From Albugo candida (taxonomy: Eukaryota), in contig JBDOQK010000003.1 in NCBI GenBank assembly GCA_040437565.1, positions 248,001-312,000 of the forward strand: DNA of 64,000 nt, read 5' to 3'. Positions 55,337-61,643 of this stretch are shown here, piece by piece; positions within the stretch are counted from its first letter, which is position 1, and each line of letters starts with the position of its first letter. The notes under the pieces are model-generated. The model was not told the origin of the DNA, ran no database searches, and was given only the letters and a program-made list of their open reading frames with translations. Made by a program: the position numbers and the translations under genes.

Positions 55337-56329
55337 ATGAGTATGCATGAAACTAAAGCCACATCTGAAGAGTTGGCCCATTTTTCGCCGTCTTTGATCA
55401 ATGAAGTAGATTGGAGTTGTGAACAAGAAGAGGTGGAGAGTATTGCGTATATTTTCAAAATGCACTTGATTGATTTTTTACTGTTATGTAATTAGGAAAC
55501 CATCCAAGCTCAAAAGAATCAGTACCTTGAAATAACAGGTGATAACGCCTACTCTAAGGCTGTTGATCAAAATGATCTTTCAGAAACACTAAATGGACAT
55601 TTTTCTGACACTACTGAGGATGTTCCTACGTCTCCTTCTATTAGCCGACGCTGCAACCGACAGAAGCGAACGTTTGACGACAATGATTCGAATTCGAAGG
55701 ATCCAACGAAAAAGATGAAACTAAATGAAGATTATACCGTAACGAGCCCAAAGTGTGCGTCCACCTTTGCAGATGCCGGACGGTGCTCTAATGTAGATGT
55801 TTGCTCAGTTGATAAATTTTCTTCTGAACATCGTAGTCCGCGAAAGATCAAGCAAGACGGTGAGGGGTCGAACCTCTATTTGGATTCTCCTGCTCAGTAT
55901 TATCGTGGTGAAAGTCGCTGCACGCTGTACATCGAATATTGGAAGCGCTCAGATGAGTGTAATTTGAAGAAGTGGGATCACATTGACCGATTAAGGGAAA
56001 AGTATGATTATGTCGAGGATCATATATATGACACCTCCTTGAAGGGTAGGACAGCGTATCTGGAACCAAACATGTTTCCTTACATGACCCCAGCAGGAAT
56101 CGAGCACTGGACATTGTGGCACATACAAGAATTATCTCACGAACAGATAAAACAATATGTTGAGAATTGGATTGATGCTAATGCACCACATGTTGAGTCT
56201 TGGAATTATGATGACAATGCAAAACGTTCCATAGAGATTTTTCATGTGCATGTATACCTCCAGTGTGCATTGAATGATTGTGTCCTCCGAGACCGCAAGG
56301 TTGAAGATCTGATGCACGAGCTTGACTGA
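55337..56329 (+). CDS. DUF3605 / Gig1-like protein (2 exons)
   Basis: PNMFPY..GIEHWTLW and RSIEIFHVHVY motifs. The first exon splices GAG|GT..AG|GAA. Alternative ATG at 55316. Confidence 0.7.
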
Positions 56330-56487
56330 CTACCATTTTCTATTATTTTTGCGCGTTTATATTATTATGAGTTAGTGATCCACGATTAGAACACCCAGCA
56401 AACCACGTTCTGATGATTATTCACAATACAGCTTCACATGGCAGTCTATTCGAGTGTTTGTAACCGAGCTTCTCTCCTCTGACTATG

Positions 56488-59400
56488 TCAACCGTACGTT
56501 CCTTCAGGACACCGATATTCTTCAGGTAAAATCGATCGCTGCAATGAATTGAATGCGTAATGAGACTTTTGGGTATTTTTCATCACGTTGACCAATCGAA
56601 CTCCATTACTTCGCATCGTAGACACGACCCGCATCAGCTCTTGCTTGGCCAGATTATGATGATGCATTAGAACATGTCCTTGCTCAAGAGTGACGGACAT
56701 GGAAGCTCGATCAGTTGCGTTTTTACTTGCTGTAATTCGTCCTGCGCCTAGCAAACGACAAAGCCTCGCGCTTAGTTGCAGTATTTTCGGATCTTTTGCT
56801 CGCACTACACGCTTCGTGGTTTGCACAATTCGAGCATCTAACTCGAATTGTAAGCTTCGAACAAGTGCAAGACGAGCGTTCATTCGAGTAGCACACTACA
56901 ATACCATAATCAAGCTCATGCCAATTTCGAGTGTCTACAGCATACCTGGGAATTGACGACCAATTTATACTGCTCCACGTACGCATTAAGCTCAATTAAA
57001 CTTTTCTGGTTGATTGTGTTCTGGACTAAAGTCTTTTTTAAGCTAGTATTGTTGGTCAACGTTTGAATCTCGCTTATCCCTTGCGTAAAAATCACTGGGA
57101 TCACCCGTATCACCTTACCGTCAATAAGATCCTGTGGAAGCATTGAGAGGGCATGCGGATCGACCCCGATCCGGACAAGTACTACATACTTCAATCCTGT
57201 GCTGCTTTGCATCTTTGAGCTTGACTGAACATGAACACCAACGATCGAAACCACATCCGCTTGTTGCACCTGTACATTACAAATGGATGAAATCGGAAAC
57301 AAAGAAGGATCAATAATTTCGAGCTGAAATCCAACATGTTTAAGCATATCCACAGCCGCAGCAAAATCCTGTAAAATCCCGATCTCCTTCCCGTGTGTCG
57401 AGAGCAAACTTTCCACATGCAATAAAAATCCCATTTGAGACCACAGAGCCAATTGTAAGGGGTATTGTTCTTGCTTCTGCATAGAAAACTCTAATGAACG
57501 ACAAAATGACGCCACACACGTTGTTATCGCTTGACTGAAGCAAATGTCCATCCGCGTTGTAATTTGCCATGTAAGCTCATCTTGTTGCTGTCGCTCCGGT
57601 TGACGCCAATCGATTTGCAAGGCTGTTGTGTTGAGTTGCTGAGAGGAATACAATGATGAAGGTAACACCGAGGGTAGATCTCGTGGGGGTAGATCTCCCT
57701 CATTGTTTGTAGAGCCTGCATTCATTTTGTTAAGTTTTCCTTCCAAGCCCAGAATTCCAATACCATGTCGAAATCGAAGGGAATGAGCCGCAAAAGCGCC
57801 GACTGTTATCGTGGAATAGGAATTCACCTGATTGGAGAGCCGTCGACTTCTTTGTGAGCGCAGCTGCTCCATTGGACCAACCCACAAATCTTGAACATGC
57901 TACGTATGATTAAAGAGCTTTATCAAAATCATCATGTGTGAAATAAAAAGCATCTTACCAAGTTGGTCGGAAGAAATTGAAATAACACGTTTCGTTTCTC
58001 CGTGCTGGATTTAAAGTATTGTCCTTTTCGTGCACGATCCATACAGGCTTGATAACATTGTCGCAATAATTGTACGTATGCACTTCGTTTTCTTACACGC
58101 TCCTCCAGCCACGTCTGGATCACAAACTGATCGTTTTCATCTTGAATCTGCTCAATCACATTATCATAAAAGCTGCTCACAACTTCTTTGCGACATCGTT
58201 CAATGTATTTTTGCAAATCTTCCTGCACCAGTTCAAGATCTCTTTCTCTCTCTTGACATAAGCAATTTAAAAAATGCATCGGAATCTCGCTGGTTAGGAC
58301 ACTTTCCAGTAAGTCTTCTACAACAAATTCTTTTATGGTTGTGAACTGAAAACATTTACTGGCGTAAAAGCTTTTGACGTCGGGTAGCGGGCGAGCCGAT
58401 ACAATCATAGACTTGACATGTAATTGTGCGGATTCGATTTTTGGATTCCGCAAGTCGCAAACGTCTTTGCTGGGAAAANNNNNNNNNNNNNNNNNNNNNN
58501 NNNNNNNNNNNNNNNNNNNNNNNNNNNNNNNNNNNNNNNNNNNNNNNNNNNNNNNNNNNNNNNNNNNNNNNNNNNNNNTGCATCGGAATCTCGCTGGTTA
58601 GGACACTTTCCAGTAAGTCTTCTACAACAAATTCTTTTATGGTTGTGAACTGAAAACATTTACTGGCGTAAAAGCTTTTGACGTCGGGTAGCGGGCGAGC
58701 CGATACAATCATAGACTTGACATGTAATTGTGCGGATTCGATTTTTGGATTCCGCAAGTCGCAAACGTCTTTGCTGGGAAAAAGGCACAAGTTCTTGCAC
58801 TTCAAGTCGATTACGTCTGTTTTCAAGCATGAAAATTCGTACAAAACTTTTTTCCTGGACGGCTGAGAGACTACGATAGAGCTTTTCTGTGCCCAACTGC
58901 TATCATAGCCATGAGAGGATGTTTCATATGGCAAGGAACACGATGGAGATGGAATTTGTCGGCCATTGCGGGTAGTTCTTTCGTCCGAAGCTGTCAGTGA
59001 GTAGCTGCTTCGATGTAAAGATTTTCTCCCTTCCTCAACGCAAGTATCGTCTTGATTAGTATCATTCTCCCGAATAAGCTCATACACCAAAAAACGCAAT
59101 TCCACGTCGCTTCCTTCGACAAGGGGAAGCTGTAGGACGGAAGAGAATGAAGCCATCAAACTCGCAGATGTAATATCTTCGATTGAAGGAACGACTGTCT
59201 CTGTGATCCCTACGCGCTTCCAGTTATGTGCGTTGCTACAAGAGCGACCACGCATGTTATCAGTCTGCGGCCTGACACCAAAGGTAGAACGTGGTGGTAT
59301 GATACCCCATTGGCCGTGCTGTAAACTACTCTGGACGAGCGTACTGATGCTTGTCTGAGAAAGAAACCGTGTCGATGTTGAATCATTTTTTTCAACCTTC

Positions 59401-61643
59401 TCTTTTTCCTCTGTTTTCTGCATCTCACCTGCGTATAATTCCACAAAGCAACGCGAAGGTTTACTCCCTTTCCTGTACATTATATGTGGTAACCTGAGCT
59501 GGAGAGCAATTGTAAGCACGTTTTGTGATCCTTCCATTGAGAGAATTGATTTTCGAACGTTCTCATTCTTGATACTTTCGGTTTCTTTACTTTCTTCCTC
59601 AAAGCTCTCAATTAGTGAATTCGCAAGATGCAAACCATCCTCTTCGCCTGGATTTAATGATAATGACTTGCGCTTTAAAACTGCCGAATTCCGCCTACCA
59701 GTAAGCGACTTTATCACCTGAAAGTGGCTTTCATTCGATTCTTTCCAACTGAGTTGCTGAAGTCGGGAATTCCACTGCAATAGTAATAATGCACAGGGAG
59801 GGACAATCATTGGCATCCAAATGACAAAGAAATACCATGGCACAGCTGGAATTTGAATCTCAAAAAAATAAAGTGATAGGGAAATGGATACTCCGATGCT
59901 CGAAGTCAGCCAAATAGCGGCTAGTACGATAACAAATTTGACCAGAGAATTCTTCATGACCTTCATAAGATTTACATGTTGCTCCTCCGTGGTGTATCTT
60001 TGATAGAAATCTCCGTGTTGACAGTAAAGGATTCGAAAGCCTCTTTGAACTATATGGACACCGAGAATCAATAGGCCCAATGTACTTCCAAAGATCAATA
60101 ACATCTGGCTCCAAAGCGCTGGAAAAAACCAATTCGAGTAGGGAACATCGCGGCACACATGTGTCACCGCATACTTCCACTGCAAGGGCTGGAGATCGGG
60201 ACAGAAATCCAACCCACACATGCTTTTGTCGTATAAAGGATTGTAAAGATAGTCATTATAAGCGCATTTGAAAAACGTTGTAAAGTTGATGATCATGGAA
60301 ATGCCACCTGAATAGAATAGACAATTTACAACTATAAAGCCCATTATGATTTTGATTCGAGAGACCGTAGCGAGTACGATATCAGCCCAATGGAAACACA
60401 CTGATGTCATCATCGTCCATTTGATGCAAACCTCGATTTGGGTCAGCAAAAAGTAGAGATGTGTCGATGAAGACGTCATTTGTACTTTGGAAGACTCAGA
60501 GATCCTGTCATGTTATTCTCTAAGAAACACGATATGCCACAAAAGCTGAGCTTACCAGAGTGCATTTGCGATGATACCCAAAGCAAACATTAGAATTATA
60601 GAGATAGCGGTCACGTCATTGAAGAACGTTTGGATTGAGAATGAGATTCCATTCTACATTTTCATTCTTAGTGCATCAGAGTACAGCTGAATAAACGAAA
60701 GAATTGCGTAAATAGCGGACCATTCGGGTGATCAAAATGGCACCAGCCAGAACGATTGCATAAATAACGATGGACATAACACTGAATACACTAAGCCCGT
60801 GACGAAGCGCTAAATAGAACGTTAGTAGGTATTGAGTTCCACAGTACACACTAGCATGCAAGTCGACGTACAAGCACGTCGATGCAGTAAGACTTGACTA
60901 CAGTCAGAGCCCAATACACGATCTCGATCGCGTATCTCGATATATCCAAGCGCAGGAAGCTGTCGACGTTGGCGCGGATGATCCGTCAAAGCTTTTTCTT
61001 TCGAAACCACATAGATTCCATGTAATTGTATCTGGAATGAGAACAAGTCGTTATCAGCAGCGTCTGCCCATGTGTATGACCGAGTATATTGAGACTTGAG
61101 AAAAAAGAGGTGAGGAATGAAATTTGTGATGCAAAAATACGTCAAACTGATTGCATCAATTGACAACCTCAGCTCATTACTGTTATCGAAAGTTGCAAAT
61201 GACGCCTGGAATTGGAAAAAAGGATTTCTATCCCAGATGAATACAGCTGTGGCGGTCGAAGGAATTGTCATCGAAACCGAGGCATCTCTTCCTTTATAGA
61301 GGCACTGGGAGGCATCGAAATTTACACATAATTCAATCGGATCTGTGTGATTGAATCCATCCACAAGAATCGCTGTCGACAGTGATACCGAGATGGTCAT
61401 TCTGTTCTGTTCACTCTCAATCCACAGCAAAGACGAATGAATGGGATTCATCCGGCGATACGGCACGGGCGCATAGGTCAATAGATCTGCAGCGTCAGGC
61501 TCGATTTGTATTTCTTGCACATCCTCAAGTGTCCGAAGATGAGTGAATGCGTCAAGAGAAAGTGAGCTCTTTGTCAGAGTGTGTGGAATGTAGGCAACTC
61601 TGGCAAGTAGAATGTAGCAAATGCGGCACAATAGCTTCCGCAT
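56488..61643 (-). CDS. 7TM (GPCR-like) / inositol polyphosphate 4-phosphatase (INPP4) fusion with degenerate catalytic motif
   Basis: Exons join to give a signal peptide, an extracellular domain, seven hydrophobic helices and a C2-like region. INPP4 motifs follow: FKSSTEK, FLPTNLHVQ, TITVGAFAAH, ESLLSTHGKE, VIFTQGI, DRASMSVTLEQ, MRSNGVRLVNVMKN and YAFNSLQ..LPEEYRCPEGTYG. Confidence 0.9.
58275..58782. repeat. Gap-flanking direct duplication (58275-58478 = 58579-58782), assembly artefact
   Basis: Apparently identical copies around 100 N, inside the 7TM-INPP4 gene. Confidence 0.85.

Follow-up and report, generated by a model that had tools for sequence, protein, structure and literature searches.

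We have analysed a gene on the minus strand (61643-56488) of a 64,000-nucleotide stretch of Albugo candida DNA (contig JBDOQK010000003.1, positions 248,001 to 312,000; hereafter the window). Sequence comparison gives good support for an expressed and conserved receptor-pseudophosphatase, so far found only in Albugo, in which a seven-transmembrane (7TM) receptor is fused to an INPP4 domain carrying serine in place of the catalytic cysteine. Two other loci of the genome match named A. candida proteins at 99% identity, which places the window in A. candida or very close to it. An earlier reading of the window from its letters alone (the sequence-only reading) had proposed such a receptor. The serine, the single gene and the INPP4 domain stood up to the analysis, and the claims about the ectodomain, the signal peptide and lipid binding had to be revised.

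The active-site loop in the window reads RITA-SKNATDR-ASMSVTLEQ, and the serine at the nucleophile position is encoded by AGT (56725-56727, minus strand). The orthologue from Albugo laibachii, P0001 (F0WIP8; CCA21139.1), has the loop RVTA-SKNATDR-AAMSVTLEQ, and three variants in Logan, present on 4, 9 and 1 contigs, carry the same SKNATDR loop. For the read check, contigs from 4 of 24 runs (X13, X7, X19 and X20) were compared with the window over 56300-58478 only. Runs X13, which is spliced, and X7, which is DNA, span the serine codon and showed no alternative letter and no TGT. Because the same codon stands in the spliced contig and in the DNA contig, and the serine is common to the A. laibachii orthologue, the serine is real, as had been claimed. 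Runs X19 and X20 were 99% alike to the window but partial, and did not reach the codon; the four coding differences among the runs (three replacement, one silent) were too few for use.

When the loop was aligned with its relatives, the Ser-type loop differed from the Cys-type loop at four positions, namely the nucleophilic cysteine, the serine after the first lysine, the second lysine, which is now threonine, and the threonine after the arginine. The drift of the last two (K to T, T to A) had been recognized earlier, and the change of serine to asparagine had been missed. The first lysine, the aspartate and the arginine are retained. All nine other INPP4 paralogues found in the genome (9/9) read CKSAKDR or CKSGKDR. 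Among stored proteins covering the loop, cysteine was present in 308/312 and serine in 4/312, and all four serine entries were this orthologue. The sample held 322 proteins, 316 of them matching the last exon and 312 covering the loop; considering that it was made of the best 150 of 786 and the best 120 of 1706 matches and is rich in near-identical vertebrate INPP4A and cluster members, it leaves room for other Cys-less INPP4 proteins elsewhere. No Ser-type copy was found outside Albugo among the relatives sampled, and a metagenome scan with 222 candidates yielded a single weak locus and added no Ser-type gene.

Two other receptors with unusual loops were observed. P0043 from Aphanomyces stellatus, a 7TM-INPP4 protein of 1353 aa, has the loop CKDGINR, in which the cysteine and arginine are kept and the second lysine and the aspartate are lost, and its sister P0038 from A. 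euteiches has the loop CKSGKDR; by its sequence, P0043 is possibly a second, independent degenerate fusion of a G-protein-coupled receptor with INPP4 (GPCR-INPP). P0010 from Phytophthora fragariae, an orthologue of the Cys-type parent, has the loop CKSANDR, which lacks the second lysine; there is one such stored protein.

The five open reading frame (ORF) fragments and one extra exon that had been joined in the sequence-only reading do form one protein. The gene consists of six exons separated by five GT-AG introns (50-67 nt) and encodes 1520 aa without stops, colinear with P0001 (1258/1505 aligned residues identical, ~84%). A scaffold gap of 100 N (58479-58578) lies inside exon 4 and is flanked by an exact 204-bp duplicate (58275-58478 = 58579-58782). 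Since the duplicate is exact and the model minus one copy is colinear with P0001, the gap and one 204-bp copy are an assembly artefact, and the 1520-aa frame was built with one copy omitted. The features of the gene are as follows (TM, transmembrane helix).

60872..61643, minus strand: exon 1 (aa 1-257), with a low-confidence N-terminal 64 aa and then an extracellular-type beta-sandwich; 75% identical to P0001
61593..61643, minus strand: possible weak signal peptide (aa 1-17), unconfirmed; from hydropathy, not conserved in the A. laibachii model
60873..61451, minus strand: beta-sandwich ectodomain (aa 65-257) with four cysteines; from predicted structure and homology to the membrane-proximal part of the ectodomain in Cys-type GPCR-INPP3 proteins
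60810..60871, minus strand: intron 1, 62 nt, phase 1; from the gene model, with position and phase as in the paralogue
60721..60809, minus strand: exon 2, TM1; from the gene model
60654..60720, minus strand: intron 2, 67 nt, phase 0; from the gene model, common to the paralogue
60556..60653, minus strand: exon 3, TM2; from the gene model
60505..60555, minus strand: intron 3, 51 nt, phase 2; from the gene model, common to the paralogue
57959..60504, minus strand: exon 4, with TM3-TM7 (to ~59769), a putative C2-like/linker region (no Pfam match) and the start of INPP4; crosses the scaffold gap
58275..58578, no strand: assembly artefact, 100 N and one of two 204-bp copies; exact duplicate
57900..57958, minus strand: intron 4, 59 nt; absent from the spliced contig of run X13
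56946..57899, minus strand: exon 5, INPP4 core; from the gene model
56896..56945, minus strand: intron 5, 50 nt; absent from the spliced contig of run X13
56488..56895, minus strand: exon 6, catalytic-site exon and stop; C-terminus PEGTYG, without the GRG(N/Q)VS tail
56707..56727, minus strand: P-loop S-K-N-A-T-D-R (aa 1442-1448), with serine at the nucleophile position (56725-56727) and threonine at the second lysine position (56713-56715)

Run X13 gave one contig of 5284 nt without introns 4 and 5, in which exons 4, 5 and 6 are joined; therefore, the exon encoding TM3-TM7 is spliced to the catalytic-site exon. That X13 is RNA is only a guess, though its joints show splicing. This contig extends 2723 nt past the compared stretch; with introns 1-3 removed and the gap taken as an artefact, the ATG would be expected after 2681 nt. 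Accordingly, the length agrees with one transcript whose 5' untranslated region is short and does not prove introns 1-3, so that the earlier claim of one transcript held for exons 4-6 and by length fit for the first three introns.

An artefact, either a sequencing error in the codon or two genes joined, or a decaying pseudogene might also be considered, given the scaffold gap inside the gene and the base at 58274 beside it, where both covering runs give another base, coding Gln as in A. laibachii. Lying at the edge of a contig, the window letter at 58274 probably reflects a mistake of the assembly. Considering that independent runs and A. laibachii carry the same loop, that the frame is open over 1520 aa with a spliced transcript, and that the constraint equals that of the active sister, we regard this explanation as extremely improbable. 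The window has nine scaffold gaps of 100 N between 14839 and 58578, and as the one at 58479-58578 conceals an unmerged 204-bp overlap, the others may likewise split single genes. A convergent ORF of 277 aa without Pfam match lies at 55496-56329 on the plus strand, and the X13 contig extends 491 nt below 56300 into it, indicating overlapping 3' ends or merged transcripts. On the other side, a divergent ORF starts ~490 nt from the start codon of the receptor gene.

The INPP4 domain is predicted to be folded. The model of the P0001 domain reached a predicted local distance difference test score (pLDDT) of 91.2 and a predicted template modelling score (pTM) of 0.92, and places the serine where a strand ends and leads through a loop into a helix; since an alignment of Cys-type proteins was used, the model owes part of its intact fold to them. 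The best structural match was P-Rex1 (Foldseek E 6e-17, TMq 0.58), followed by SopB, SidF and SidP, and a sequence search of the PDB with the INPP4 part returned only P-Rex1 and P-Rex2 (E 3e-8). The domain assignment made earlier was thus upheld, with the IP4P domain of P-Rex1 as its nearest structure.

In terms of catalysis, the loop lacks the nucleophilic cysteine of CX5R, and the CKSAKDR set is incomplete, with threonine at the second lysine. The human enzymes INPP4A and INPP4B belong to the same catalytic domain family (~38% over the core), and the loop corresponds to C842-R848; they are soluble and active, whereas the window loop is altered at the C842 and K846 positions. INPP4B with C842S is phosphatase-dead, and K846M has no lipid phosphatase activity, the latter being cited there from another study (PMC4908438). 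Because the natural loop is altered at both positions, we consider that 4-phosphatase activity has very probably been lost. Residual catalysis that relies on serine or water, or is directed at a different substrate, would be compatible with the modelled fold and loop geometry, the retained aspartate and arginine and the strong conservation of the domain. However, a change of cysteine to serine kills INPP4B, and the sole other C-x5-R of the cytosolic part (aa 1195) was rejected as a P-loop, since it sits in a long helix of the model; we judge continued catalysis to be very unlikely. The earlier notion of a naturally inactive receptor is well supported by the loop, expression, conservation and the INPP4B mutants, with the inactivity itself predicted.

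The phosphoinositide binding proposed along with it appears weaker than claimed. Besides the second loop lysine, two near-invariant arginines (aa 1061 and aa 1496) are lost, and so are several acidic residues. A clean Cys-to-Ser substrate trap would keep the second lysine and the arginines, and so the loss of basic residues argues against a clean trap or a simple lipid trap, as far as sequence can tell. The dead pocket might still act as a sensor or trap, binding phosphatidylinositol 3,4-bisphosphate (PI(3,4)P2) or an inositol phosphate and either shielding it from the active paralogues or reading it to control the receptor. The retained phosphate-binding arginine, first lysine and aspartate favour this idea, as does the catalytic exon, which is the best-conserved cytosolic part (125/134), and pseudophosphatases often retain their fold and bind phosphorylated ligands (PMC8269279). 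Against it stand the lost arginines and acidic residues and the lost second lysine (K846 in INPP4B, needed for lipid activity), the basic pocket of INPP4A being tied to both loop lysines (PMC6795519). We consider a sensor or trap rather unlikely.

The gene arose by duplication of an Albugo gene of the GPCR-INPP3 type and diverged afterwards. In a tree of 75 INPP4 domains made with a quick method, the window protein and P0001 formed the sister group of the Cys-type Albugo protein P0002 (SH-aLRT 99), with a stem of 0.9 and tips of 0.07 and 0.10. Their neighbours were orthologues from Pythium, Phytophthora and downy mildews, and the orthogroup is that of P0004, which its source names GPCR-INPP 3. 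The window protein shares 45% identity with its Cys-type paralogue on contig C18 of the genome, and all five introns (5/5) fall at the same alignment column and in the same phase in both genes. Because the introns are common in position and phase, the duplication took place at the DNA level. Descent within the oomycete GPCR-INPP family is supported by the INPP4 tree, a 7TM tree and the common introns. Exon 6 ends with PEGTYG, and the tail GRG(N/Q)VS was present in 27/27 Cys-type orthologues checked. The A. laibachii model P0002 continues for ~590 aa with a PF16200 match, and the paralogue in the A. candida genome (L012 4381-9736) stops at GRGNVS; P0002 is probably a fused gene model.

The Ser-type and Cys-type genes were also compared by their identity between the two Albugo species, corrected for introns. 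Over the whole INPP4 domain, the Ser pair was as conserved as the Cys pair (487/553, 88%, vs 496/553, 90%). The catalytic exon gave 125/134 vs 121/134, the ectodomain 136/171 vs 145/171, the 7TM part 285/298 vs 269/298 (90%; p=0.016, uncorrected, one of 8 regions), and all columns together 1163/1372 vs 1154/1372. An identity of 83% for the 7TM part of the Cys pair was rejected as an artefact of reading through introns, the value being 90% after correction. Among columns near-invariant in 46 Cys-type proteins, 22/131 differ in one or both Ser-type proteins, so that the earlier description of an otherwise intact domain is only roughly correct. The changes found in both Ser-type proteins cluster in the loop (4/8 vs 15/123 of the other invariant columns, p=0.016), and 17 altered columns have an identical new residue in both species. 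By these comparisons, the gene diverged once it had been duplicated and then came back under constraint; the pattern is not one of decay.

The same numbers bear on a vestigial domain, in which case the receptor would signal to heterotrimeric G proteins via the 7TM part alone (model E, PMC6033456), and the INPP4 fold would be kept for folding, traffic or membrane attachment. Within the Ser pair, conservation is highest in the 7TM part, the genome has an intact G-beta gene, and the case is foreseen in that review. However, over 553 columns the dead domain is as conserved as its active counterpart, which exceeds what would be expected of a passive vestige; a Pfam scan of the separate exons (E 0.1) gave no family above the cut-off and hence no GPCR-family match, and coupling to G proteins is only putative for the GPCR-INPP family. 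We hold a vestigial domain to be quite unlikely. The G-beta gene (L014 1501-2529) is intronless, and its last codons run into a scaffold gap.

The ectodomain has not turned out as the sizeable ligand-binding domain of ~250 aa proposed earlier. An extracellular-type domain is present, but the model showed a folded beta-sandwich of only ~190 aa (65-256), with aa 1-64 at low confidence. It is 35% identical to the membrane-proximal domain of P0002 and 30% to that of P0008. The Cys-type ectodomains are much longer, with TM1 beginning at ~aa 445 in P0002 and ~990 in P0008. Since it is homologous to the membrane-proximal part of these, the ectodomain is a truncated inherited domain and no novelty, the Cys-type parent having had a longer one. 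A remnant of the distal ectodomain of the parent was not found upstream of the gene. The four ectodomain cysteines are kept in both Ser-type proteins, which suggests that the ectodomain is still outside the cell. Fold searches matched only generic beta-sandwiches (adhesin, cohesin, carbohydrate-binding and alpha-2-macroglobulin domains), with best scores of E 2.7e-4 and TMq 0.30 in Foldseek and Z 6.5 in VIA-align and none at Z 8, so that such model-based matches do not allow the ligand class to be read. ESM Atlas gave no usable match for the ectodomain, and the fold matches listed (best Z 6.5) included no GAIN domain before TM1.

The signal peptide is in doubt. The maximum N-terminal hydropathy (KD9) was 2.18 in the window protein, close to the value for P0002, and 1.02 in P0001, compared with 2.26-3.29 in four Cys-type relatives, and P0001 has charged residues at the positions matching the putative peptide. 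The claimed signal peptide was therefore not borne out, being absent from the A. laibachii model. In the 7TM part (aa 258-565), six hydropathy peaks were detected; TM3 was below threshold here and above it in P0003, P0004 and P0008, and the seven helices of the earlier claim are obtained when TM3 is added by homology. A further hydropathy peak at aa 164-182 was rejected as a transmembrane helix, since it falls in beta-strands of the model.

Considering the comparisons together, we propose that a duplicate of a GPCR-INPP3-type gene in the Albugo lineage lost its distal ectodomain and its phosphatase catalysis, and that it afterwards returned under strong constraint as a functional pseudoenzyme receptor. 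The beta-sandwich and the 7TM part would sense an outside cue. The folded, dead INPP4 domain would not act as an enzyme but would serve at the membrane side as a module for docking or regulation, by analogy with the IP4P domain of P-Rex and with inactive myotubularins, and we favour this role with modest confidence. The signal would be relayed through protein binding and not through lipid hydrolysis, most plausibly to the Cys-type sister receptor or the G-protein pathway, which appear to be the likeliest partners. A closer arrangement, in which the dead receptor and its Cys-type sister form an obligate heterodimer, seems to us unlikely. A complex prediction with the INPP4 domain and the G-beta of the genome scored 0.00 in two runs; the controls were unfolded and the alignment was unused, so that this is no evidence either way.

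Several points weigh against the proposed docking receptor. The 7TM tree gave the same grouping as the INPP4 tree with weak support (84/68), its paralogue tip being inflated by reading through introns. The excess of conservation in the 7TM part would fail correction over 8 regions. The active sister itself departs at 13/136 invariant columns, and therefore part of the drift is lineage-wide. The retained first lysine, aspartate and arginine fit residual phosphate or lipid binding. As for the analogies, the residues of P-Rex1 that bind G-beta-gamma are not conserved in INPP4A (PMC6795519), and myotubularin pairs rely on a coiled coil (PMC8269279).

Fusions of GPCR and INPP4 are known from oomycetes, as had been stated earlier (PMC5784254, PMC6033456), with catalytic activity described as unknown there (PMC5784254), and an inactive catalytic domain is one hypothetical mode of these GPCR-bigrams (PMC6033456). 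The window protein has the ectodomain, 7TM part and C-terminal INPP4 domain of oomycete GPCR-INPP bigrams in one polypeptide. Compared with the Cys-type bigrams, it has SKNATDR instead of CKSAKDR, a shorter ectodomain, a doubtful signal peptide and no GRGNVS tail. The accession and the N-terminus of the orthologue had no match in the searched supplements of PMC5784254 (cells to 400 characters, minus one PDF), and the GPCR-INPP sheet of the same paper gives each Albugo species one other entry. We found no Cys-less GPCR-INPP described in the literature covered, most subscription journals lying outside the search.

The best match in the PDB by sequence and by structure is the IP4P domain of P-Rex1 and P-Rex2 (PDB 6PCV, 7SYF, 8TUA, 9ZQ7; PMC6795519), which also has an INPP4 fold without detectable activity and takes part in GPCR signalling. 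P-Rex IP4P keeps the cysteine and arginine and has lost the lysines, whereas the window protein has lost the cysteine. P-Rex is a soluble Rho guanine nucleotide exchange factor (RhoGEF), whereas the INPP4 domain of the window is fused to a receptor, and their origins are independent. The window protein is not a P-Rex protein, the sequence match being limited to the IP4P part, with no DEP or PDZ match in the Pfam scan. Perhaps its INPP4 domain works like P-Rex IP4P. Inactive myotubularins and MK-STYX (PMC8269279, PMC2873733) are likewise CX5R pseudophosphatases beside active paralogues and act by binding; they belong to other families and are not receptor-fused, and a pairing of sisters is hypothetical for the window protein.

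The significance is limited in that the receptor was found only in Albugo, that pseudophosphatases are common (~14% of phosphatases, PMC8269279) and that the role is proposed by analogy. It has the only Cys-less INPP4 domain among the relatives sampled, and after P-Rex it would be the second case in which an INPP4 fold has independently come to serve GPCR signalling without catalysis. If the heterodimer were true, a phosphoinositide 4-phosphatase would be governed by two different ectodomains, and a myotubularin-like pair of pseudoenzyme and enzyme 7TM receptors would have arisen in an obligate biotroph. The reviews of oomycete GPCR-bigrams do not settle whether signalling runs through the attached enzyme or can proceed from the receptor alone (model E, PMC6033456). 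Here one genome carries both an active and a dead sister, and the two are conserved to the same degree between the two Albugo species. They are a natural case for this question and make it directly testable in heterologous systems.

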